DNA from: Candidatus Thorarchaeota archaeon
GTDB lineage: Archaea > Asgardarchaeota > Thorarchaeia > Thorarchaeales > Thorarchaeaceae
Direction: 5' to 3'
DNA: 64,000 bases
Assembly (NCBI GenBank): GCA_048882325.1
Contig: JBHLRS010000011.1
Location: forward strand, 38,521-102,520
Below, in pieces: positions 50,160 through 62,551 of this stretch (the stretch's first letter is position 1; every line of letters starts with the position of its first letter). The notes under the pieces were generated by a model that saw only the letters and a list, made by a program, of their open reading frames with translations, had not been told where the DNA came from and ran no database searches. The translations under genes were made by a program, and so were the position numbers.

Positions 50160-51152
50160 TCATAGCCATTGCTCGAGTGATGACTGACGTGTGCCAAATC
50201 CCTTCCACAGTTTGAGGACTTTTTCTGTCGTGACTTCAACTGTTGGTTCTGGCATTACCATTCTGAGCGAACGTGTAAGTGATGGCACTATTGGTGGATT
50301 CAACTTCAATTGGATGTTCTGTGTGGTGATGTATGACGCTTCATCGAAAATTTCACGAGCAAGAGAGAATTCCTCTCGTTGAGTATGTGGAACTCCTCTG
50401 GCTTTTAATACCTCGATGAGACTCCCATGTCGCTGTAGAAGAATCGATCCCTTGCGAGGTCCAATTCCTTTTACTCCTTCATGAAAATCGCAACCACTTA
50501 GGACAGCAAGGTCTCTTAATCGCTCTAGATCTAGATCCATCTTAGTTTCAAGCTCTGAAAGCTTACTTCTTAGAATCCGTTCATTTGATACCTGGAGTTG
50601 CTTCGTGACATGCAGAGCTCCGAAAAGAAGTGCATCTACGTCATTCGAAACCACTGTGTCAACTAGACCGTCCCTACACATAGCTGCTGCCATCATCTCT
50701 GCCTCTGATGGGGCAGTGATTGCAGGAACGCCTATGACTCTGGCAAGGTCTTTGATATGGTGCCCTGCAAAGTACATCCTCACAGCTCGGCTGTTCCATA
50801 GTGCCTCAGCAATCTCTTCGTTGAAGGGGTCACCTTCGTCAACAAATTGCTGATAGAGAGATTGAGCTTTTTGTATCAGTTCAGGATTCGGATCCCGTTT
50901 TCGTGACTCCGGAGGTCCATCAAACACCAGGACAGGAAGGATATGAATACTGAGAGTAGACCCGACCAAGCTTAGCAAGGTTCTAACATGTGCTAATGGT
51001 AACCTCCCGTCAGGAGATTTCGTTGTTTTAATTGCAGTGAGTCGTCTGGTCAAATAGTTTGGTACATCAATCGCAATTGCTCCCGGACTGATTTCCTCGA
51101 TTCCTACCCAGCGCCAAGGAACAATGCTATCATTCCAATGTTTCACACCCAT
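50160..51152 (-). CDS. fen: FEN1/XPG family structure-specific nuclease with PIP box
   Basis: MGVK, IDVPNYL, PVLVFDG, APSEAE, SNDVDALLFG, GCDFHEGVKGIGPRKG, C-terminal QSSLEQWL. Confidence 0.9.
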   Translation of the reverse strand: MGVKHWNDSIVPWRWVGIEEISPGAIAIDVPNYLTRRLTAIKTTKSPDGRLPLAHVRTLLSLVGSTLSIHILPVLVFDGPPESRKRDPNPELIQKAQSLYQQFVDEGDPFNEEIAEALWNSRAVRMYFAGHHIKDLARVIGVPAITAPSEAEMMAAAMCRDGLVDTVVSNDVDALLFGALHVTKQLQVSNERILRSKLSELETKMDLDLERLRDLAVLSGCDFHEGVKGIGPRKGSILLQRHGSLIEVLKARGVPHTQREEFSLAREIFDEASYITTQNIQLKLNPPIVPSLTRSLRMVMPEPTVEVTTEKVLKLWKGFGTRQSSLEQWL

Positions 51153-51164
51153 AGCCGCCGCCTC

Positions 51165-51884
51165 TCATTTCATACTTCTGATTCCTTTTGAGTCCGCTCT
51201 GACAATTATGCTTGGAGGATTCTTCGACGCTGTGCATCTTTCTACGAGAATCCGAATTAGACTCTCGTTTGTTTTTAGCCTGTCAATCCGTACAACACTA
51301 TCAACCGCATGAGACAATACATTTCCACCAATCGGTGTTGTTGCTCCGGAAACCCAGTTTCTCGAGGATTGATCGGTTATGAGTGCGTGAGTATTTGTTT
51401 CATTTACAACACTCCTGATGACTTCAAAGGTATGAAATAGTTCTCGCTGACGACCTTTTGTTCCTGGAGCACCAGAGAGATTCAGAGCACCTGTGAGACT
51501 GTCTAGAACAATCACAGAAACACTACCTAGATTGTCAAGCGACCCCATCATCTGCTCAGCATCAGCCAGACTCATAATCTGTCCCACAACGATCCTACTC
51601 AAGACCTCTGATGCATTGTCCGCTGACGCACAAAGAGATCTTGCTAATGCAGGGCTGTAGTTAGTTCCTGAGTCTAGGAAGACGCACTTTGCGTTTGGTA
51701 GAGACTTGGCGGCTGACACTGCAATCCCATGTGCCATAATACTCAATGGTGCACGTTCTGAGCTGTGTAATAGGCTGATTTGACGTGGAAGCACAATGTT
51801 CTCAAAAGATTGTTCAAGAACTCTTGGAGTAAGTCTAATCTTTGATTCTGTAGGAATCTCAAGTTCTTCAAGCGGCACTCTCAA
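51165..51884 (-). CDS. RadB/Rad51-paralogue-like protein, degenerate Walker A
   Basis: RecA fold: VFLDSG, VIVLDSL, LITDQ, PIGGNVLSHAVD; the P-loop is replaced by HSSERAPLS. Confidence 0.8.
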   Translation of the reverse strand: MRVPLEELEIPTESKIRLTPRVLEQSFENIVLPRQISLLHSSERAPLSIMAHGIAVSAAKSLPNAKCVFLDSGTNYSPALARSLCASADNASEVLSRIVVGQIMSLADAEQMMGSLDNLGSVSVIVLDSLTGALNLSGAPGTKGRQRELFHTFEVIRSVVNETNTHALITDQSSRNWVSGATTPIGGNVLSHAVDSVVRIDRLKTNESLIRILVERCTASKNPPSIIVRADSKGIRSMK

Positions 51885-52833
51885 CGGAATCTATGACCTC
51901 CCGGATTGCTGTAAAGTTTCGATTTAGAAGCAGCTCTGACTCATGACCCTGTTTTAGTGTTTCAACATTGAGACCTGTTACTTCCATATCTGGCACGAGC
52001 ACCATCAATCCCCACTCCGATGGGAACACGGTCATGCGTATTGGCCACATTGACAACAGATCATTTACTGTCTTCTCATCCTTTGCAAGTCTGTATTCTT
52101 TCATCATCAGTCCATTCTTCTCATCAATTATTGGAATCATCTGAACTGCCTCAGCAAGAAGAGTAGGAGCTTGACCTTTACTCTCGATGCCATATGATTT
52201 CAGAAGTGCTAAGACTCTATCTAACATCGAAAGGTTTCTTCCAGTAGAAACAAAGAGAACATCAATCTCTTCGAAATGAGTCAAGGAGATGGGTAATAAT
52301 AAACGATCACGCATCAATTCGGCAACTTTGTTGCGATGTTCCGGGTTAATTACTAGAACTGAGTTTGTCGAATTCAAGGTGAGGGATGATCCATCTCCGG
52401 TTTGTATCACACGTTTTGAAAGACCACTTAGTGAACCACTGACCCCAGATGGAATATACTCCTGAATCTCATTTAGTATTGCTGAGGGATCTCCAATGAA
52501 TGAGATGAGAATTGATGTAGCGACCGCTGTGACAATCGATACGACAAGACCAAATGGCAGAGCAATGACAAAACCTACCACAATCATGTAACCCGAAGCA
52601 GCATAACTTACAACGTTGAGGACCATCTTGACAGGAGTATCTTCTTTCTGCTTTTTCATGAGCCTAAGGAGAACTACTGTGATAGCTCCTGCAATTATAA
52701 GTGGAAATGGATTTCCTGTCCTGAAAGCGAGTACAACTCCGACAACTGATGATAATAGCTCCGCACCTCCTGCAAGAGCAATAGCTCCTGCAAACACTAA
52801 GCCAACCAGTTTGAGGATGCTTTTTCCAAACAT
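51868..52833 (-). CDS. Membrane protein (4 N-terminal TM + soluble domain)
   Basis: Hydrophobic N-terminal third; coupled to both neighbours. Confidence 0.75.
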   Translation of the reverse strand: MFGKSILKLVGLVFAGAIALAGGAELLSSVVGVVLAFRTGNPFPLIIAGAITVVLLRLMKKQKEDTPVKMVLNVVSYAASGYMIVVGFVIALPFGLVVSIVTAVATSILISFIGDPSAILNEIQEYIPSGVSGSLSGLSKRVIQTGDGSSLTLNSTNSVLVINPEHRNKVAELMRDRLLLPISLTHFEEIDVLFVSTGRNLSMLDRVLALLKSYGIESKGQAPTLLAEAVQMIPIIDEKNGLMMKEYRLAKDEKTVNDLLSMWPIRMTVFPSEWGLMVLVPDMEVTGLNVETLKQGHESELLLNRNFTAIREVIDSVESAA

Positions 52834-53516
52834 TAACTGTTACCTCCGACCAGCTCTGAAACTCTGGACAGGTAAGGTTGGACTGTGGGACTCCCGTCCT
52901 CCTGCAACCTTAACACCCCAAGCTGCTCCCTGTTTTCTAGAGTGTCAATCACTCTTAGAATTCGCGTGGAATCTTCCAAAGGCTGACGAACTAGAACAAG
53001 ATCGTGGTCAACCCATTTCTTGATATTACGATAATGAACTGCAAGATTTCCGGACTCGGTCAACTCACGGCTCTCACTGGTGATTATGATTGTAAGTCCT
53101 CTCTCCTGCACGAGACCAGCTAATGTGGGTAGGACCTCCTCAACGAGTTCTCTACCCCATAGGATGGGGTTCTTCCTCGCCATGTCAAGCAATCGCGTAA
53201 TTGGATCAATCACGACGAGTGAAACTCCCTTCTGAAGTGATTGCGGGAGTCCAAGAATGTGATCAAGAGCTTCATTTCTGTCACCCATCATACTTACGCA
53301 TACGTTCTGAATCACTCCTCCCACCGAATCTATGGTTCGTTTTAGAAATGGGATGAAACTATGCTTTGAGTCAGTGTTGATCCACTCCACCTTTGAATAG
53401 CTGGATATTTCTGCCGCGATTGAGCATGCAAAAAGAGTCTTTCCAGAGCCTGCAGCTCCCCAAAGATGAATCAATCCATCCAGTGTAAGAGTGTCAGTTA
53501 GAGTTGCTTTAGACAC
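52833..53516 (-). CDS. RadB/Rad51-paralogue-like ATPase
   Basis: Walker A GAAGSGKT, WINTD, Walker B LVVIDPI, IIITSE; no N-terminal HhH; GTG start after AGGAG overlapping the upstream stop. Confidence 0.82.
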   Translation of the reverse strand: MSKATLTDTLTLDGLIHLWGAAGSGKTLFACSIAAEISSYSKVEWINTDSKHSFIPFLKRTIDSVGGVIQNVCVSMMGDRNEALDHILGLPQSLQKGVSLVVIDPITRLLDMARKNPILWGRELVEEVLPTLAGLVQERGLTIIITSESRELTESGNLAVHYRNIKKWVDHDLVLVRQPLEDSTRILRVIDTLENREQLGVLRLQEDGSPTVQPYLSRVSELVGGNS

Positions 53517-55149
53517 TTGCTGAACCACTCTCCTCCTTAGAACCTGAGGCAGAATCGGCGATGTCAACCTCCTCTAGAAGAGAGAGCTGATGCGTTTCTT
53601 TGATATTCCTCCTCTTTTTCTTTGATCTAGCAGTGACAACATCTGCTCCTGTTATGTTCATCTCAGGTTCTTCAGGCTCTTCAGAGATTTCATTCGCTGT
53701 TGCATCGACTGATGCATGCAACATCATATCCAGTAATTCATCGTCCTCCTCAGTTCCCTTGCTTGGTGCTGAATCAGTATCTTCAGGATTTGATTCCTGC
53801 ACTTGTTTTGGAATTATGACCTCTTCTGATGCGAGCTCTTTATCCATCTCCTCGACTGCTTCTTTCATGGCACGTTGGTTGAGATGGTCATCAATTGAAT
53901 CCTTGATGTCTGGACGTAGAGCACCGATATGATAGAGTGCATTGTTGAGCTGCGTTAGATGTTCTACTGCCTCAGTGAAGGTGATAGCTTTCGTAACATG
54001 CCCAGTGAGACCGACATATGCGAGTGCCAGGGATTCCTCTTGCTCTACACCTCCAAGATCCTGGAAGAGACCTAGAAACTTCCTCAAACCGACATCCGCC
54101 TCTTTCATTGATACTGAGCTCGAATCACTTTGAAGGGGAGCAAGCCGTACGCACTCGTCAAGAACTGAGCACGCCGCGCCAACCGCCGTATCAACATCCC
54201 CCTCCTCAAGAGCCCGACCTGCTGCGGCTATCAATGGTGAAACGACGAAGTTCAAATCTCCGATGAGCACTAACTTATCCTCATTCTCCAAAATTGATTT
54301 TGAGATTCTATCCGCATCCCCTAGTCTATCCAACACACTCTGTTCATCACTGAGGGTTGTGACGAATCCACTGATTGAGGACCTTGAGGATTGTAACAAC
54401 CAACCGCCCACAATTCCTGACAAAGCGCTTGCTAGTAGTGGTAATATCAATGATCCTGTACCAACTGTAAGAACTGAGAGAGTGGTCGCGACTCCAATGA
54501 TGAGCCCTACCATTGCTAGAATTCCAAACCAACCCCTTGTCAGACCACTCTCTAGCAATGCCCACTTATTTCCAATGATGCTCTTCTTCAAATCAGGAAG
54601 TCGAGAACGGGCATCACTCCTACGGACAAGTACAAATTCCTCTGGTGTAACCACTCTTCCGGTGTCTGTTAGCCAAGTCAAATCCATCGTTGGTTTTGTT
54701 CCTTTTGTAATAACATAGACCGTTCGTGTTTCATGGATGAGTGACTCCTTCTTTCCAGTCGCCCCTCTGAGCAAAGGCAACCGAATCTTGCCCCAGGGCG
54801 TCACCAAAGTCTGTTCATTCATGAACTCCTCGAGTCCGACATCTCCCAAGACTCGTGGGAGTGTCCTGTTGATGCTCTCAAGAACAGCGGCTCTCATAGC
54901 CAAACCACTCTTACCAAAAGCGGCTTCACGCAAGTCAAGAACATAGACAATGTCCACATGGACTCCACGAGTTCCTGGAATTGCTTCTAATCTTACTCCT
55001 AGTGTCAAGCCATTGGGATACCTTATTGTAAAGTGTCCTGTCACCTCTAAGGCCGCAGTTATGTCATGTTCCTTCTTCGTAGTAGTCGATGATTCTTGCT
55101 CAAGCTCTTCGCCTTCAGTAACCTTGTCCTCTTCTTTTGTTAAGCTCAT
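53509..55149 (-). CDS. Membrane protein (central 2-TM hairpin, helical domain, acidic tail)
   Basis: TMs WFGILAMVGLIIGVA and LILPLLASALSGIVGGW; GGAG SD. Confidence 0.75.
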   Translation of the reverse strand: MSLTKEEDKVTEGEELEQESSTTTKKEHDITAALEVTGHFTIRYPNGLTLGVRLEAIPGTRGVHVDIVYVLDLREAAFGKSGLAMRAAVLESINRTLPRVLGDVGLEEFMNEQTLVTPWGKIRLPLLRGATGKKESLIHETRTVYVITKGTKPTMDLTWLTDTGRVVTPEEFVLVRRSDARSRLPDLKKSIIGNKWALLESGLTRGWFGILAMVGLIIGVATTLSVLTVGTGSLILPLLASALSGIVGGWLLQSSRSSISGFVTTLSDEQSVLDRLGDADRISKSILENEDKLVLIGDLNFVVSPLIAAAGRALEEGDVDTAVGAACSVLDECVRLAPLQSDSSSVSMKEADVGLRKFLGLFQDLGGVEQEESLALAYVGLTGHVTKAITFTEAVEHLTQLNNALYHIGALRPDIKDSIDDHLNQRAMKEAVEEMDKELASEEVIIPKQVQESNPEDTDSAPSKGTEEDDELLDMMLHASVDATANEISEEPEEPEMNITGADVVTARSKKKRRNIKETHQLSLLEEVDIADSASGSKEESGSASV

Positions 55150-55168
55150 TTTTTCTGCTCCTCCATTG

Positions 55169-57367
55169 TCATTCGTCTTCTCCCCCGCTTTCGCTAAATC
55201 TACTCTCCAAGGCTTCTAAGAGACCTCGGGATATTCCGAGTACTTTTGAAAGACCTCCAAGTTCAGCAATGATTGCTATCGAGTGTAACAGCCATCTTGA
55301 AGATTCGAGTAAACCAAACATATCTCCCATGCTGATACCTAACTTGATAGCAAGCTGTCTTACCGAAATCTCAGTTGAAGCCAATGCAGCCATCATATGA
55401 TCAAATGAATCATCCAAGTTACTTCCGCTCTCAATTGATACTAAGTGACGAAGCAGCCACAGAAGCTGTGTGTTGTCTTCTATTGTTGGAAGTAATGCTA
55501 GTAATTCCCTTGCTGTTGGGATGCTCAAATAGAGTCTATTCACAGTCCGGCCAAGTTTAGTCGGTTTGAGTTTTCCATTGACCTCCCCCTCAACAAGACC
55601 CAACCGAATCAATAGAGCAAGAGGTGAGGTTTCTGACAATGCAAGTGGAATCACATAATCTGCAAGAGTACCTAGCTCGCGTGAGGAGGTCATGCCTAGT
55701 GTCACCAAGTGATGACAAAGAATTCCATCTTCACTAATTGGGCGACCACAAGAGCACATCGGACCCTCGACTATTCCTGATGGGGAAAGTCTCGCAGAGA
55801 ACCTACATGTATACTGTCCTCCTCCATAGCCTGTGATCAATCCCCCAATCACGGTTTCATGTTGCTCCCGGACCTTTGTAGCTCCGAGTACCCCTTTCCG
55901 TGCTGAGTGAATTGTATCTGTGAGTGCATGCCGCTCAATTGCAGCTTCAGCAGTAATTTCTCCAAGCTGTAGGACTCTCATTGGTGCCTTGGAATCCCTA
56001 ATGGCACAATGGACTAGAAAGGCCTCACCTAATATCCCATTCTCAATTTCTTCAAGAGTTGCTGAAGACAACATATCCAGAATGACGAGAAGCTGCTCTG
56101 ATAGTGAACTTGCCTCACCCAAAACACTGGGAATCGAGTCATGCTTTGGTGTGAGTATTTCTTTTCCTGATTCTGGATCTACGAGTAAATCGAAGTATCG
56201 GTCCTTTATCTTGTCAGCTTCACCAGTACTCCCAGCAAGAAGAATGCCAAACCCGACCTTATCCTTTCCTGGTCTCCCTGCTCGACCAAGCATCTGATGG
56301 ACACTGTTGGCTGAAAGGAACGTTCGATAATCCTGAGGTGACTTAGTACTCGATAGAACTACAGTCCTGGCAGGTAGATCCATTCCTGCAGCCAGCGTGG
56401 ATGTGGCTGAGATGACTCTGATGAGTCCTTGATTGAAAAGTCGTTCAACAAGCCTGCGCGTCTGGTAATCAAGACCTGCATGGTGATATGCAGTACCGTC
56501 ATGAAGCAACCCTCTCATATCAGAGGGTAATGTCACATTGACATTCTCCAATGACTTAAGCTCGATGTCCAACTTGTCCTTCTCACCTGAGGTGAACTGT
56601 CTCCCAACATCCTCAGCAAGTCGGAGAGCTTGCGCCTCTGCTTCTCGTCTAGTTCGATTGAAGACAATAGCTTGACCATCACCTTGAACCGTTGTCATCA
56701 CCAGTGTCTTGAGACTATGATTCTTGTTACCTGTAATCATCACTTTGCAAACTAGAGGAACAGGGCGTTCATCTGACTCGACCAATTCACAGTCCATCCA
56801 TTCTGCAAGCTCTTCTGGTGACCCAACTGTAGCTGAGAGCGCGATTATCTGTAAATCCTGTAACTGTCTTCTCATTCTCACAATGAGGCTCTCAAGTCTA
56901 GCACCTCTCCCAGGATCTGCAAGAGTCTGTATCTCATCAATCACAACAGTGCCTATTTCAGAAATCCAGCTCACGTTTCGACGGAGCAGAGAGTCTGCAC
57001 GTTCATAGGTCGTAACAATGACATCATACTCTGCAAGATCTTCTCCAGAATTCTGGAAATCGCCTGTGGAAATCCCTACTGCTACTCCAAACACCTCATA
57101 CCGGTCTCGAAGAATCTGACTCACCTGTACGGCAAGAGCTCGCAGTGGGACTAGAAATAGTCCCTTTTTTCCTGTGGTGACTGCTCGTAATATTCCTAAC
57201 TCGCCAACAAGGGTTTTCCCTGATCCTGTTGGACTTGCAACCATGATATTCTTTCCATCAAGGAGGCCCTTGTCTAGTGCAAGATTCTGAATACCTCGAG
57301 GTTTGATGCCAGCTTTACCTATGATTTCCTCCACCTTTGAGGATACATCAGCCACAGCCATCATCAA
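55169..57367 (-). CDS. Ski2/Hel308-like SF2 helicase with inserted SWIM Zn finger
   Basis: SPTGSGKT, PLRALA, DEIQ, SAT, HHAGL, TSTLAAGMDLPA, QMLGRAGRPG; SWIM-type CSC-x10-CHH. Confidence 0.9.
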   Translation of the reverse strand: MMMAVADVSSKVEEIIGKAGIKPRGIQNLALDKGLLDGKNIMVASPTGSGKTLVGELGILRAVTTGKKGLFLVPLRALAVQVSQILRDRYEVFGVAVGISTGDFQNSGEDLAEYDVIVTTYERADSLLRRNVSWISEIGTVVIDEIQTLADPGRGARLESLIVRMRRQLQDLQIIALSATVGSPEELAEWMDCELVESDERPVPLVCKVMITGNKNHSLKTLVMTTVQGDGQAIVFNRTRREAEAQALRLAEDVGRQFTSGEKDKLDIELKSLENVNVTLPSDMRGLLHDGTAYHHAGLDYQTRRLVERLFNQGLIRVISATSTLAAGMDLPARTVVLSSTKSPQDYRTFLSANSVHQMLGRAGRPGKDKVGFGILLAGSTGEADKIKDRYFDLLVDPESGKEILTPKHDSIPSVLGEASSLSEQLLVILDMLSSATLEEIENGILGEAFLVHCAIRDSKAPMRVLQLGEITAEAAIERHALTDTIHSARKGVLGATKVREQHETVIGGLITGYGGGQYTCRFSARLSPSGIVEGPMCSCGRPISEDGILCHHLVTLGMTSSRELGTLADYVIPLALSETSPLALLIRLGLVEGEVNGKLKPTKLGRTVNRLYLSIPTARELLALLPTIEDNTQLLWLLRHLVSIESGSNLDDSFDHMMAALASTEISVRQLAIKLGISMGDMFGLLESSRWLLHSIAIIAELGGLSKVLGISRGLLEALESRFSESGGEDE

Positions 57368-59709
57368 CTAGCACCTGCCACTTCCTGAGCCTGTCGTAAG
57401 GCCATGCTCCCTTTCATTGTGATTCTGAAGTTTGAATAAGCTACACCACTGTGGCTCTCATGTCCGCGCAGAATCATGCTTGCATGTTCAAGTCTTGCGA
57501 GAATACCCTCTATGTCTGGGTCTTTCTCAGTGTCATTGGCAATTATGAATCTCCGGACTGCTTCCTCAGTAAGGGGTTCATATCGCTCTAGGAGTTTGAG
57601 CACCTGAATGGCGAGGTATGTGTTCCCTGCAGCGACCATCTCCAGCAATGTTCGATTATGCATTGGTCGTTCTAGCTCGCTTGGGGGCGTGAGTTGGTCG
57701 ATACGTTGTGACATCTCTTGAAATGAATCTCGTGAATCAAGATCTGGCTGCTCATCCAATCGAATTGGTTGACATGTTTCAGTACCATCATGAACCAGAA
57801 GGGCTGTTTGGTCATCCATTATCCGTAAGTATGAAGACTCTCTTGGTGATATGCGCGCTTTGGTGTGCATTGATGTCATTGCATTGAGACCCAGTAAGTC
57901 TGCAACGATTTTGACATCAACAGACTCTCGAATTCTTAGTGAAACACATGACGCAAGAACACCTATCGATCCTGGAGCCATGTCTGCTGGATGTTCAAGA
58001 GCTAGCACCAGAGGACCTCTTTTCTTTAGATTCTTCAACAAACGTTCTGAGAAGGAATCATGTTTCATGAATCGCCGGTTCCTAATCCGCATATTCTCTG
58101 CACCATCTAAGATAACTATCAAATTAGGATCTGGTTGTAATCCTGCCAGTTTAATGCAAATCAGATTCCATGCAAAGCTGTCTAGACCCGTCGATCCAAG
58201 TGATATTTTTATGATTGACAGTGAGGGATCTGCAAGACGTCTTGTTGGGACAGTCTGAGTTCCGTAAAATGCTCTGGCCGCAGTACCCATGTGCAAGGAT
58301 CTGATTGCTTCCATTCCAATTAGCGACTTCTTTGAAGGCCTATGGTCTTGGACCATCTGGCCATCTGGCGATAATGATTGGGGCTCTTCAAATTCTGGAT
58401 TAAAACGGACATCAGCAAGTGTTGCATTACCTAGAGAAACTGCTCGTGAAATGGCAATTTCTAGCTCAGCTGCTCCACGCAGGTCTTGAGCTGCAACAAC
58501 CTGTAACGCAGAGATGAAAAGTGGAACATATTCACTTCGAGGATTTCCTTCTGAATCGATTGGATTCAAGACAAGGTCTTTTCCTAGCTCCATGTATACA
58601 GAAGAATCTGTTAGTGCAGTTAGTTTTGCTAGAGACGATGAACCTGTCACCAATATTACTCTCTTTCCAGCTCTAAGAAGCTCAGAGGTCAGAAGAGTTA
58701 GTATGTTATGGCGTAATGCTTCAGTCCCCCCACAGACAAGTGTTCCAGTCTCCAGATCCTGTGGTGACAAGCCAGCTGGCGGACCAGTCTGCAATGTATC
58801 AGGATTTAGTGTGGCTCCTAACCGATAATCATCCGGACGACCACGTATTGGAGCGATGAATTGACCCGGAACATTAGTGCCAACCTCTGCTGCTAGCTCA
58901 CTTCGTAACTGAACAAGCCACTCAGCTAATTCGGATCCAGCTGCATAGAACCAGCCACTCTGTCTATCTATTTGATGAAGCCTCATTCTTGAAGACAGGT
59001 GTCGCGGGTTTACTCGCTCCCACTCCTTCTCTGGCACCGCTGCCTTCACCGCAGAATCAAACGCACTGGTCTGTGAAGCGCTCTGCATGTGACCCACAAT
59101 AGTGGTATGTGAGATCCAAATGCCGCTTCGTTTTCGAACATAAGCGTCTTGATCTCCTTTTGATAATGCATTCAGATAGCCCTCAAGCATGTTTGAGATC
59201 TTTTCCTCATTCATTGCTCTAGTGAGTTTCTCAGGTCTCATTGTCACTGTCAGACAAAATCCATTGGAGGTGTCCAGAGCTCTAACAAGTGAACCAACAT
59301 TACCCAGAAGGTTCGGACTTGCCCTCCAGAGGTCTAGTCCAATAGAGTACCGAGTACCACCCGTACCTCTCAATTCGAGATGCTCATCATTTTCTATACA
59401 GGTTACATCTCCTTCCGGAACCTCAGTCCAAACTTGAAGCAGATTGTTTAACCACTGAGAACCTCTGAGCTTAGGAGAAAATAGCTGAACCAAAAGAAGG
59501 ACCACAGCTGTAATCGTGGCGGCTATTGGAATACAGAGACCAATGACGACAGCTACCAATGAAACAAAGAGCAATCTCCCTAAAGGGAGTCCAAGACTTC
59601 TCTCCTCCCATCTAATCTCAGTACCTGTGGTTATACTACCTTTTGGCTCGGATAGCTCCTGCAGAGGATCAACCTCCGGTTTCGTACCCAAGATCAAGCG
59701 TTTGCCCAT
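57364..59709 (-). CDS. Membrane-anchored HerA/VirB4-fold protein with degenerate ATPase motifs and C-terminal wHTH
   Basis: N-terminal TM pair; VLNPI, ATLADV, LIVILDGAEN, LVLALEHPADM, LRIRESVDVKIVADLLGL; the Walker A position reads VCGGTEALRH. Confidence 0.7.
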   Translation of the reverse strand: MGKRLILGTKPEVDPLQELSEPKGSITTGTEIRWEERSLGLPLGRLLFVSLVAVVIGLCIPIAATITAVVLLLVQLFSPKLRGSQWLNNLLQVWTEVPEGDVTCIENDEHLELRGTGGTRYSIGLDLWRASPNLLGNVGSLVRALDTSNGFCLTVTMRPEKLTRAMNEEKISNMLEGYLNALSKGDQDAYVRKRSGIWISHTTIVGHMQSASQTSAFDSAVKAAVPEKEWERVNPRHLSSRMRLHQIDRQSGWFYAAGSELAEWLVQLRSELAAEVGTNVPGQFIAPIRGRPDDYRLGATLNPDTLQTGPPAGLSPQDLETGTLVCGGTEALRHNILTLLTSELLRAGKRVILVTGSSSLAKLTALTDSSVYMELGKDLVLNPIDSEGNPRSEYVPLFISALQVVAAQDLRGAAELEIAISRAVSLGNATLADVRFNPEFEEPQSLSPDGQMVQDHRPSKKSLIGMEAIRSLHMGTAARAFYGTQTVPTRRLADPSLSIIKISLGSTGLDSFAWNLICIKLAGLQPDPNLIVILDGAENMRIRNRRFMKHDSFSERLLKNLKKRGPLVLALEHPADMAPGSIGVLASCVSLRIRESVDVKIVADLLGLNAMTSMHTKARISPRESSYLRIMDDQTALLVHDGTETCQPIRLDEQPDLDSRDSFQEMSQRIDQLTPPSELERPMHNRTLLEMVAAGNTYLAIQVLKLLERYEPLTEEAVRRFIIANDTEKDPDIEGILARLEHASMILRGHESHSGVAYSNFRITMKGSMALRQAQEVAGAS

Positions 59710-59710
59710 G

Positions 59711-60007
59711 CTAGATCTTCCCCCTCCTAGTTACAGTACTTTCAGATTGTCTCTGCAGCATATCCAATGCTTGTTTTATGCGACCAACATAAGCAGGGTC
59801 TCCACCAGCAATGACAATTGATCGTTTCCCTGTCATTAGGAGTTCAGGCATATTTCCGAGAGTTGGATTGCCATGTGCGATGAGTAAAGGTTGTTTTGTG
59901 AGGACAGTCCATCGGTACCCATGTCCGAGCTCTAGGAATCTCATGATGTCCTCAGGTTTGACACCCAAAGGTATCTCAAGCCCTACTCGTTCTTCTTCAG
60001 GATACAC
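59711..60007 (-). CDS. Small hypothetical protein
   Basis: 98 aa; AGGAGG SD; coupled within the operon. Confidence 0.7.
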   Translation of the reverse strand: MYPEEERVGLEIPLGVKPEDIMRFLELGHGYRWTVLTKQPLLIAHGNPTLGNMPELLMTGKRSIVIAGGDPAYVGRIKQALDMLQRQSESTVTRRGKI

Positions 60008-60596
60008 TGGTTTCCATTCCTCCTGTGTTTACCATCAGTATATCCTGTTTCTCAGCCCGTTCCACAGGTAGATGTGGATATGCTGCTCTCATGGAGCTTT
60101 CAAGGATCATAATGTCTGCGAGCATGAGCATTGAAAGTTTCTCAACCTTCGAACGTGTATATGGCAACCGCAGTACCCTTCTTCGGATCAGCATTCCAAC
60201 CTTTGTTGATTCATTACCAACTGGTCGATTGATAAAGAAAACAAGGGTACCACCCGCTTCATTCTCAAATCGTATGTGCATTGCTTGGAGTACTTTCCTC
60301 GCAGAATGACTCAAGTCGATACCTAGGGGTACACTACCAAGCAATCTTGCGGCACATATCTCCAGATGCCACGGTCTGATGATAGCCACGAATCCTCGTT
60401 GCTCATCCCAAAGAACTTTCGGAACATAGCTTGACTTGTATTCAACCCCCAGAACGATGATGTAGATTCCAAGTCCTGCGGCTATCATCAGGATGCCGCT
60501 GAGGTCATTCGGGGACAACCATAGTTTGAGTAGTAACGTCGTGGTAAAAAGGGACAGTATCAACCATCTTATCGGAATGTCGAAAAACCTCGTCAC
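59997..60596 (-). CDS. Membrane protein (2 TM + soluble domain)
   Basis: Two N-terminal TMs; ESSMRAAYPHLPVER resembles DSAVKAAVPEKEWER in the HerA/VirB4-like N-domain. Confidence 0.72.
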   Translation of the reverse strand: MTRFFDIPIRWLILSLFTTTLLLKLWLSPNDLSGILMIAAGLGIYIIVLGVEYKSSYVPKVLWDEQRGFVAIIRPWHLEICAARLLGSVPLGIDLSHSARKVLQAMHIRFENEAGGTLVFFINRPVGNESTKVGMLIRRRVLRLPYTRSKVEKLSMLMLADIMILESSMRAAYPHLPVERAEKQDILMVNTGGMETSVS

Positions 60597-62551
60597 AGGA
60601 ACCCCTCCTGCATATTCACGAATTGACCAATAGCCAGCTCAAGTTCCTCTACATCTCTATATGGCCAGACATCTGAAACAATGTCATCACCAAAAATCCT
60701 CAGATGCTTAAGGAAGCGATTGTCAAGAAGTACCACGACACCTGTGTCAGTCGGAGACCTTCGTAGTCGACCAACGAGTTGTGCAACTTGTCTGATTGAC
60801 GGCACAACTGCGGCATAAAAATATCCAGAACCATTTCCAAACCGTGAGTCGTACCATCGTTGCAATGCGATTTGGTAACTCGTGGGTGGACTGAAGGGTA
60901 TACCAATTCCAATGATAATATCAATCATACTAGAGCCATTATCCACTAAATCAATGCCTTCAGAGAACTTTCCACCGTACACGCAAAAGACAGCCTGAGG
61001 TCTGTCAGAGATCGCTTCGATCAGGGTTTCTATACGTTCTGTTCTTGTTTCCACAAGGTTCTCGCGATATCCAGTATCTATGGAGTAGCTCATGACCTCG
61101 TGAAGCATCTTGTAGCTTGGAAATGCAATCAAGGCACTTTTGTTAGCTGGCATTGTTGTCAGTGCGGTTGTAATCCTCTGAGCAAGATCACGCCAGAGGT
61201 CCGGACCCCGAAGCTGATACTTCGTGTTCAGTACTTTGTCCACTAGTACAAGCCTAGTCCCCTTGGGATATGGACTTACTAGGTCCTCAGCAAGAGCCCC
61301 AGACACACCAAGTAGTCGTGAATAGTAGTCCAGTGGTCTCAGAGTTCCTGACATCAAAACTGCTGATCTTGCTGTCCTGAGAATTGGTGCTGTGAGTCCC
61401 GAGGAGTTGAGTGGTTGTATCATGAGCACTGACCTAGAAGTCGGACCATCCTCTTTCCAGGATTTCTTGGTCTGAAGTGTGACATGCCAACCCTCACTCT
61501 TTGACGCCCTCTGAGCTGTGAAGAGGAACTCAATGAGTCTGTCAAGAGGGGTCTCAATCAACCCAGCATTCTCCGGGTCTCTAAGACTCGGTCTTCCAGC
61601 AGAGTGTAAGACTTCAAGGTCATCCTCCTTCACAAATCGTGGTGAAACATCCCACTTATCCAACACTCTCTCTGACCGATTATACATCTTGTCTAAATTG
61701 ACCATCATTGTCTCCCAAAGAAAGTCGATCACCTCTCGGATCCACTTGAGACTGGTCTCACGGGTGACCAACTGATGATTCTCCTTGAGCCAACGCAGGT
61801 CTTCATTGCTTAGCTGCGAAGTCTCTGCATCTAATACATGACTTGGTAGGTTGTGTGCCTCATCAATAAGTAGGTCCACTTCTGCTAGGGGGAGTCCCAA
61901 CGATGCCAGTAGCGCATCACGCACCCTAGATCTGAAGATGTAGCTGTAGGGTCCAATGATCACTCGACTACTTCGAGCGCACCATCGCATCAATTCATAT
62001 GGACAGACACCTTCATCTTCAGCCCTCTCCTCGACCCTATCTCTTGTAACAACACCCGTCTCTAGCAGGTCTTGAACTACCTCGCGAAGGACATCTCGAA
62101 TGATTATTCTTCCATCTGTCTTGTTCTTCTGATAGAAGTTCCAGTAATGGTGACACGAGCCTGTCTTGATCATCTGAGCGCAGGCTCGCATGAATCCCGT
62201 TGAGCTCAACGAATCCATAGTGTGGCGAATAGGACAGACATGAACTCGTGAAACCATGGTTGTTGCTGTGAGATCTGGCTTAACTGACCGGAGCACTTCC
62301 AATTCGCTCTCGAAGACCTTCGACTGTGAATGAGTTCTGGTCAGTGCGAAGAGTCTTGCTGTGTTATCTTGACCTCTTGCTGCCAGATAACCGGAGAGGA
62401 CGGCTATTGTCTTCCCCACACCGCAGTCTGCTGAGAGTAGCCCCACTGTCTTGGTAGAGAAGGATTCTACTGCGAGACCGACTGCCTTCTCCTGAGAAGG
62501 TCTAGGTGAGTATGGAAAGAACTCCATCCTGTCAGTCGTCACAGCGTTCAA
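60593..62551 (-). CDS. xpd: XPD/Rad3/DinG family Fe-S helicase
   Basis: Q motif PRPSQ, SADCGVGKT, four Fe-S Cys (VCPI, RACA, GSCH, VCPY), DEAHNL, MSGTL, FPSY, SEGIDL, QLVGRLRR. Confidence 0.92.
   Translation of the reverse strand: MNAVTTDRMEFFPYSPRPSQEKAVGLAVESFSTKTVGLLSADCGVGKTIAVLSGYLAARGQDNTARLFALTRTHSQSKVFESELEVLRSVKPDLTATTMVSRVHVCPIRHTMDSLSSTGFMRACAQMIKTGSCHHYWNFYQKNKTDGRIIIRDVLREVVQDLLETGVVTRDRVEERAEDEGVCPYELMRWCARSSRVIIGPYSYIFRSRVRDALLASLGLPLAEVDLLIDEAHNLPSHVLDAETSQLSNEDLRWLKENHQLVTRETSLKWIREVIDFLWETMMVNLDKMYNRSERVLDKWDVSPRFVKEDDLEVLHSAGRPSLRDPENAGLIETPLDRLIEFLFTAQRASKSEGWHVTLQTKKSWKEDGPTSRSVLMIQPLNSSGLTAPILRTARSAVLMSGTLRPLDYYSRLLGVSGALAEDLVSPYPKGTRLVLVDKVLNTKYQLRGPDLWRDLAQRITTALTTMPANKSALIAFPSYKMLHEVMSYSIDTGYRENLVETRTERIETLIEAISDRPQAVFCVYGGKFSEGIDLVDNGSSMIDIIIGIGIPFSPPTSYQIALQRWYDSRFGNGSGYFYAAVVPSIRQVAQLVGRLRRSPTDTGVVVLLDNRFLKHLRIFGDDIVSDVWPYRDVEELELAIGQFVNMQEGFL

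Follow-up and report, generated by a model that had tools for sequence, protein, structure and literature searches.

A Hel308-type helicase with a divided winged helix

The stretch analyzed here, referred to as the window, comprises 64,000 nucleotides (nt) of a Thorarchaeota genome (assembly size 3.6 Mb, 93% complete), namely positions 38521-102520 of contig C11. On its minus strand, within a run of same-strand genes that includes two small RadA-family paralogues, lies an open reading frame (ORF) for a Hel308-like helicase that carries a predicted SWIM-type module inside its winged-helix domain. Homologues of this protein are named only "DEAD/DEAH box helicase" in public records. The features of the gene are as follows (aa, amino acids):

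55169..57367, minus strand: SWIM-bearing Hel308-like helicase, whole ORF, 732 aa from TTG
56819..57292, minus strand: RecA1 domain, residues 26-183 (Walker A GSGKT, DEIQ, SAT; PF00270, E 7e-30)
56927-56938, minus strand: motif II DEIQ, residues 144-147, read from the translation
56198..56755, minus strand: RecA2 domain, residues ~205-390 (motif VI QMLGRAGRPG; PF00271, E 3e-10; 2p6r alignment to residue 388)
56003..56113, minus strand: first half of the winged helix, helices 421-433 and 438-453 (model secondary structure; alignment with canonical Hel308)
55616..55978, minus strand: inserted, predicted SWIM module, residues 464-584 (canonical Hel308 alignment, AF2 model, ZSWIM8 fold match)
55709..55756, minus strand: CSCGRPISEDGILCHH, with putative zinc ligands C538, C540, C551 and H553 (CxCx10CxH; translation and 27-insert alignment)
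55532..55615, minus strand: second half of the winged helix, recognition helix 582-588 and wing hairpin 592-602 ("PTKLG") (model; 2p6r 473-490)
55202..55531, minus strand: helical ratchet domain 4 (residues 671-718 matching 2p6r 578-625; PF21280, E 2.4e-4)

The probable start is the ATG at 57364, which yields a protein of 731 aa, because this codon overlaps the TGA stop of the upstream gene (TGATG) and the database homologues are likewise 731 aa long. At the other end, 19 nt separate the helicase stop from the start of the next gene, which is preceded by GGAGG.

An earlier note on this DNA, made from its letters and translations, had described a complete set of superfamily 2 (SF2) motifs with DEIQ in place of DExH. 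That description was borne out. Motifs I, II, III, and VI are intact (GSGKT, residues 48-52; DEIQ, 144-147, a DE-Q form; SAT, 178-180; QMLGRAGRPG, 358-367), and their defining residues, the arginines in the case of motif VI, are invariant in an alignment of 20 family members sharing 51-86% identity. Given this invariance, the helicase motor looks active. More distant relatives mostly have DEIH at motif II, in contrast to the DEIQ found here. The top sequence matches in the PDB were Hel308/Hjm proteins (2p6r, E 3e-73; 2zj2; 2va8), with ASCC3, Brr2, and the helicase domain of POLQ ranking next. A Foldseek search with a full-length AlphaFold model likewise returned Hjm/Hel308 first (E 1e-31 to 1e-28) and the POLQ helicase domain next. 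The model has a mean predicted local distance difference test (pLDDT) score of 78.6 and a predicted template modeling (pTM) score of 0.38; global TM scores are low because the arrangement of the domains relative to one another is poorly predicted. NCBIfam models for Hel308 cover residues 7-443, and the equivalogs among them match from residue 7 to about 400, at scores far under their cut-offs (NF040935, 289 versus 1200 bits; NF002654, 369 versus 887 bits). By sequence and predicted fold, the gene encodes a Hel308-family (Ski2-like SF2), presumably ATP-driven DNA helicase/translocase, additional to the canonical Hel308 that the genome also has.

Alignment with 2p6r (Archaeoglobus fulgidus Hel308) pairs residues 28-388 with 31-395, 599-616 with 473-490, and 671-718 with 578-625. 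Relative to that structure, the protein has ~130 extra residues in the winged-helix region and no counterpart of domain 5. The canonical Hel308 of the same genome places the insert more narrowly, at residues ~464-584 (~120 aa), after winged-helix helix 2 (438-453) and before the recognition helix and wing (582-602). The ratchet domain scores 21.4 bits against a PF21280 cut-off of 27 in the window copy, whereas one homologue (L051) exceeds the cut-off at 32.4 bits. Beyond domain 4 the protein stops after ~10 residues, and no HHH Pfam match was found in it; the canonical Hel308 has HHH_5/HHH_2 matches and a full domain 4. The alignments and the model thereby agree with two further statements of the earlier note, which had put the insertion at 100 or more residues: the winged helix is split, by a module of ~120 residues, and the C-terminal helix-hairpin-helix (HhH) domain 5 is absent.

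The insert resembles a SWIM zinc finger

To identify the insert, the window copy was aligned with homologous segments from 26 other genes, which share 17-88% identity with it. Only four columns are invariant among these 27 inserts, namely C538, C540, C551, and H553, and the same four residues are invariant in the 20 full-length homologues. The cysteine of "YTCRF", to which the earlier note had drawn attention, is not conserved and is replaced by serine in several members. That note had also proposed a search with the Pfam SWIM model (PF04434) as a check, and the outcome was divided: the window copy went unmatched, but 11 of the 27 inserts matched at E<=1 (best E 1.6e-7), and one full-length homologue, from a cluster named Baldrarchaeia (L057), passed the cut-off with 27.7 versus 19.6 bits.

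An AF2 model of the insert built from the 27-insert alignment is confident (pLDDT 91.5, pTM 0.85). Its predicted fold consists of two short helices, a four-stranded antiparallel sheet (strands 33-39, 43-49, 55-64, and 70-75 in model numbering), a zinc knuckle, and two helices, with one helix at 89-102. In the predicted knuckle, CxC closes the last strand and CxH opens the helix, after which one more helix follows. A structure search against 48,161 PDB representative chains gave a single outlier, residues 81-281 of ZSWIM8 (9rwz; Z 6.5), with the next chain at Z 3.8. We take this segment to contain the annotated SWIM finger of ZSWIM8. The superposition has a root-mean-square deviation of 3.8 over 97 residues at 18% identity, and a second-look alignment agrees with it. 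Foldseek with the insert model returned nothing at E<=0.001, and ZSWIM8 was the lone match with a probability >0.5. The insert profile found just one chance match among PDB sequences, and a search of the ESM Atlas with the insert gave no usable match. Because Pfam misses the window copy, the SWIM assignment rests on the homologues, the invariant ligands, and the fold model. From these, we conclude that the insert is a divergent SWIM module with a predicted zinc knuckle. The SWIM identity proposed in the earlier note is thus supported by the invariant signature, by the Pfam SWIM matches of homologues, and by the fold match to ZSWIM8.

A conserved gene cluster with RadA-family paralogues

The helicase gene lies in a cluster whose main features are the following:

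50160..62551, minus strand: conserved same-strand cluster encoding XPD, a 199-aa protein, a 781-aa protein, the helicase, a 546-aa protein, RadP1, a 321-aa membrane protein, RadP2, and FEN1
57364..59709, minus strand: upstream 781-aa gene, whose stop overlaps the helicase start; N-terminal hydrophobic segment
52833..53567, minus strand: RadP1, small RecA-fold paralogue (intact P-loop; PF13481 (AAA_25), 2e-7; TIGR02237 RadB, 7e-6)
51165..51884, minus strand: RadP2, small RadA/RadB-like paralogue (PF08423 (Rad51), 1.4e-5; TIGR02237, 9.5e-14; PDB RadB 2cvf, E 1e-3)

The genes overlap or nearly abut, and two small proteins precede XPD in the run, XPD itself being assigned by PF06733/PF13307. No GxxGxGK[ST] Walker A motif was seen on reading the sequence of RadP2. 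Judged by their family matches, RadP1 and RadP2 are divergent RadA/RadB-like proteins. The 781-aa, 546-aa, 321-aa, and 199-aa proteins had no match in searches of Pfam, NCBIfam, PADLOC, and PDB, and hydrophobic segments of the membrane type are visible in all four.

This order is kept in 9 of 11 loci checked within the Thorarchaeota family of the window; the other two (L046, L062) hold just part of it. The nine syntenic loci come from eight other genera, and their helicases are 49-64% identical to that of the window. As side observations, the helicase frame at L046 (genome G368) is 975-985 aa long with the upstream XPD and 781-aa gene missing, and at another locus (L045, genome G334) the helicase match begins at residue 246 within a frame of 480 aa, as if the gene were split or frameshifted.

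Neighbors in more distant lineages were sought with profiles built from the Thor-family orthologues of the cluster genes. The SWIM helicase has a RadA-family gene at a distance of 0-7 kb in genomes of the Frey, Hel, Baldr (a tail-less copy), f14, f3, f4, and Loki types, and 6 of the 10 neighbor proteins scanned passed the PF08423 cut-off. In two closed Lokiarchaeia-type genomes, RadA, a small P-loop paralogue, and the SWIM helicase are contiguous on one strand (RadA and P-loop protein at L074:11675-14938 and L075:11834-14216); this RadA matches Rad51 at ~250 bits and has an N-terminal HhH. FEN1 also recurs near SWIM helicases of other lineages, and relatives of the 781-aa protein occur near them in several other Asgard families (L053, L055, L056, L072). 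A paired control used six genomes, the window's own and five other Asgard genomes, all of which have a RadA-family gene within 0-7 kb of a SWIM-type helicase (in one of them, of its tail-less copy alone). The ~9 kb flanking their canonical Hel308 genes to either side gave no match to any cluster profile, a comparison that is not a statistical test because the six genomes are related. What the neighborhoods do show is that linkage to RadA paralogues is specific to the SWIM-bearing paralogue and has persisted among deeply diverged lineages. The statement that the helicase is encoded beside Rad51 paralogues therefore stands, with the neighbors being RadA/RadB-like, the gene order conserved, and the canonical Hel308 unlinked.

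An Asgard-wide paralogue group

The apparent distribution of the module depends on the search used. A single-sequence search with the insert against 1.84 billion representatives recovered 8 clusters, including a repeat protein (P0126) that is a spurious match; this understates the spread, since profile searching found far more. With the C-terminal half of the protein as the query, matches were obtained in 74 of 400 Asgard genomes, including 57 of the 85 genomes of the window's own family. The insert profile matched in 243 of the 400, among them 83 of the 85 just mentioned and, in the largest of the other families, 118 of 135. A word-indexed profile search for longer proteins returned almost exclusively Thorarchaeota. 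Database proteins identical to members carry names including Freyarchaeum deiterrae, Helarchaeota, Baldrarchaeia, and Odinarchaeota/Asgardarchaeia. In all distant helicases examined, CxC...CxH occupies the same place. Most insert-bearing members lack domain 5, and the module occurs together with an HhH tail in L057, L058, and L064/L073.

A canonical, SWIM-less Hel308 is present beside the SWIM type in all six genomes examined (the window's own and five other Asgard genomes). A maximum-likelihood tree, computed with the insert columns removed and from Asgard sequences only, so that its root is uncertain, unites the canonical copies in a clade (support 100/99). All SWIM-bearing copies lie across one branch (75/87), together with one Loki paralogue that the motif pattern did not match. 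The topology is consistent with, though no proof of, a single origin of the SWIM-bearing helicases, and by sequence the SWIM-type helicase is an Asgard-wide paralogue group distinct from canonical Hel308.

Several related proteins were encountered alongside this group. The canonical Hel308 of the window's genome, on contig C9 (L008, G000:C9:66792-70997), has domain 4 and an HhH tail, no SWIM module, and a position directly downstream of an MCM-like gene. The same genome encodes a third Hel308-like protein of 739 aa (L011:1450-3669; G000:C62:9121-11340) that is 23% identical over the core. Its insert is of the same sheet-plus-SWIM build, scores 16.6-20.9 bits with Pfam SWIM, and has a net charge of +6. 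With YDYNEA at Walker A and IDRLD at motif II, this degenerate paralogue looks inactive as a helicase. Its neighbors are metabolic and RNA-modification genes, with no repair genes among them, and a second insert match of this type is found in most Thor-family genomes.

The module also appears outside helicases. Lokiarchaeia-type genomes encode stand-alone proteins of ~225 aa (L068:1465-2142, L069:1468-2142, L071:1432-2115) with a DUF2240-like N-terminal region and the module at the C-terminus, where the first ligand is histidine (HxC...CxH). These could be a free SWIM protein of a size comparable to SWS1. A DUF72 protein (L070:1429-2640, genome G002; PF01904, 4.8e-62) has the same module at its C-terminus, with HDC...CKH.

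Proposed function and alternatives

We favor, with a probability of roughly 0.6, the reading that this protein is a Hel308-type motor in which the SWIM module serves as a docking arm, most probably for RecA-fold paralogues, in recombination or fork repair. By analogy with Hel308, the enzyme would translocate 3'-5' on single-stranded DNA, and it probably acts in recombination or at damaged forks. The SWIM module would protrude from the winged-helix domain as a docking surface, as might be expected from Mtr4 and Ski2, whose winged-helix domain likewise houses an inserted module, the arch (PMC10946056). Such a surface most probably holds a protein partner, for which the neighboring RecA-fold paralogues are the best candidates, and docking would link the motor with a recombinase-mediator complex. 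Published contacts supply the analogy: the SWIM domain of yeast Shu2 touches the Rad51 paralogue Shu1 (PMC5727457), and HELQ binds BCDX2 (PMC13623763). Loss of domain 5 would remove annealing, the role given to this domain of canonical Hel308 in a review (PMC13623763).

Several observations weigh against this docking model. PF04434 did not match the window copy, whether the insert was searched alone, in the whole protein, or in a six-frame genome scan, to E 10, and the Z score of the ZSWIM8 match is middling by the tool's own calibration. Two HhH-bearing SWIM forms (L057 and L058) had no RadA-paralogue match in the surrounding DNA, which for L058 is a contig of just 5.9 kb; the finger is thus not strictly tied to paralogue neighbors. 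In the window, one gene lies between the helicase and RadP1, and two besides RadP1 lie between the helicase and RadP2. With a pTM of 0.38, the full-length model does not fix how the module is oriented toward the DNA channel. Lastly, a simple soluble repair complex leaves the many membrane proteins of the operon unexplained.

The module might instead bind nucleic acid, such as duplex or branched DNA, forks, or D-loops, and replace the contacts of domain 5 with no protein partner involved. SWIM fingers are predicted to bind DNA as well as protein (cited in PMC5727457), the winged helix that houses the module is the substrate-recognition domain of Hel308 according to a review (PMC13623763), and the loss of domain 5 in most insert-bearing members fits a substitution. 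The members that keep both module and HhH tail indicate, however, that the finger is not simply a domain 5 substitute. The charge of the module also bears on this alternative. Among helicase members, the insert has a net charge of -7 to +3 (-2 in the window copy) and an isoelectric point of 4.7-8.7 (6.2 in the window copy), so that it is net acidic or neutral in nearly all of them. Three alignment columns, R490, R500, and R526, are basic in >=70% of members, but they do not amount to a conserved basic patch. As calculated from sequence, the charge leans only weakly away from a dedicated DNA-binding surface and toward protein docking. We regard nucleic acid binding as the sole role of the module as unlikely, though worth keeping in view.

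Less probable again is that the helicase powers a membrane-associated machine for handling DNA, whether for exchange or uptake, for defense, or for a mobile element, rather than for housekeeping recombination. Four proteins of the operon have membrane-type segments, the 781-aa gene overlaps the helicase start and has relatives near SWIM helicases elsewhere in Asgard archaea, and the helicase core resembles the HamB helicases of Hachiman systems. Against such a machine stand the absence of any neighbor matching a PADLOC defense model, the housekeeping-type XPD and FEN1 in the cluster, and the presence of the module in 83 of the 85 genomes of the family. Moreover, order and flanks are the same in the nine Thor-family loci from eight genera, unlike a mobile island.

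A defense-system reading specifically was rejected, as there was no specific PADLOC match and the HamB and BrxH matches of the helicase span the generic Ski2-like core only.

Returning to docking on RecA-fold partners, a stronger form can be stated in which the SWIM module directly clamps a neighboring RecA-fold paralogue and the Asgard unit is a prokaryotic forerunner, or at the least a deep equivalent in function, of two eukaryotic partnerships, SWS1-SWSAP1 (Shu) and HELQ-BCDX2. We hold this to be improbable. More doubtful still is a literal line of descent, in which the protein is a homologue of SWS1/Shu2 fused to a HELQ ancestor and both eukaryotic partnerships derive from the module. In favor of descent, conserved gene order across Asgard archaea joins the SWIM finger and its Hel308/HELQ-type motor to RadA paralogues, and a published tree places eukaryotic HELQ/POLQ on a branch with Asgard Hel308 (PMC10946056). 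The SWS1 family is further marked by an extended motif, CxC...CxHxxA, with a conserved alanine (PMC6316741), and most Thorarchaeota members do have CxHxxA. The alanine is, however, threonine in the window protein and lysine, arginine, or threonine in other lineages, and SWIM fingers are widespread and often independently recruited. Shu2/SWS1 was absent from the fold matches listed for the insert, and the insert profile retrieved none among PDB sequences, an absence from lists that amounts to no exclusion. The earlier note had proposed a counterpart of both the Shu and the HELQ links. Of that proposal, the connection to RadA paralogues stands at the level of gene order, but no likeness to SWS1 can be claimed from the PDB sequence search and the fold matches listed; to speak of a fused counterpart of HELQ-BCDX2 and Shu is to draw an analogy rather than to show homology.

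A role in RNA surveillance as a Ski2-like RNA helicase, with the gene order coincidental, is highly improbable, for although Brr2, Mtr4, and ASH-Ski2 stand in the PDB match list and the module's best fold match, ZSWIM8, comes from a complex of RNA and protein, the best sequence and fold matches of the helicase are DNA helicases (Hel308/Hjm, then POLQ) and its conserved neighbors are DNA-repair genes.

Significance

Hel308/HELQ helicases and Rad51 paralogues are central to the control of recombination and are poorly understood, as is the cross-talk between them, also in human cells. Asgard archaea, to which the eukaryotic host lineage is more closely related than to any other known group, keep a dedicated SWIM-bearing Hel308 paralogue beside small RadA paralogues and, in Lokiarchaeia-type genomes, beside RadA itself. 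In the searchable literature, no relevant paper mentions Hel308 with SWIM, the sole paper containing both words being unrelated, and the SWIM insert goes unmentioned in a survey of archaeal Ski2-like helicases from 2024, whose genomes included 27 from Thorarchaeota. Docking of a RecA-fold partner by the finger would make the system a compact and expressible model of how helicase and mediator are coupled; DNA binding by the finger would represent a new way to retarget a Hel308 motor. Should the module prove to clamp a RecA-fold paralogue, it would open a testable route to the origin of eukaryotic recombination mediators.

Comparison with known systems

In the order of its domains (RecA1-RecA2, winged helix, ratchet), the protein follows archaeal Hel308/Hjm (2p6r, 2va8, 2zj2/2zj8) and the helicase domains of HELQ and POLQ. 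It departs from Hel308/Hjm in the SWIM module of ~120 aa within the winged helix, in the lack of domain 5, and in having DEIQ rather than DExH. The module itself resembles PF04434 SWIM fingers such as that of ZSWIM8, with CxCxnCxH (n=10), strands that lead into the CxC knuckle, and a helix that opens with CxH. Rather than being terminal or stand-alone, the module of the window protein is embedded inside a helicase domain. Another Ski2-like branch, that of Mtr4 and Ski2, also has an accessory module in the winged helix, the arch/KOW insertion; those enzymes are RNA helicases, however, and the arch has a different fold from the sheet plus SWIM predicted here. Shu2 and SWS1 are small stand-alone proteins, in contrast to the embedded module, yet in both settings a SWIM finger is associated with RecA-fold paralogues, in Shu2 through a solved interface with Shu1 and here through gene order.

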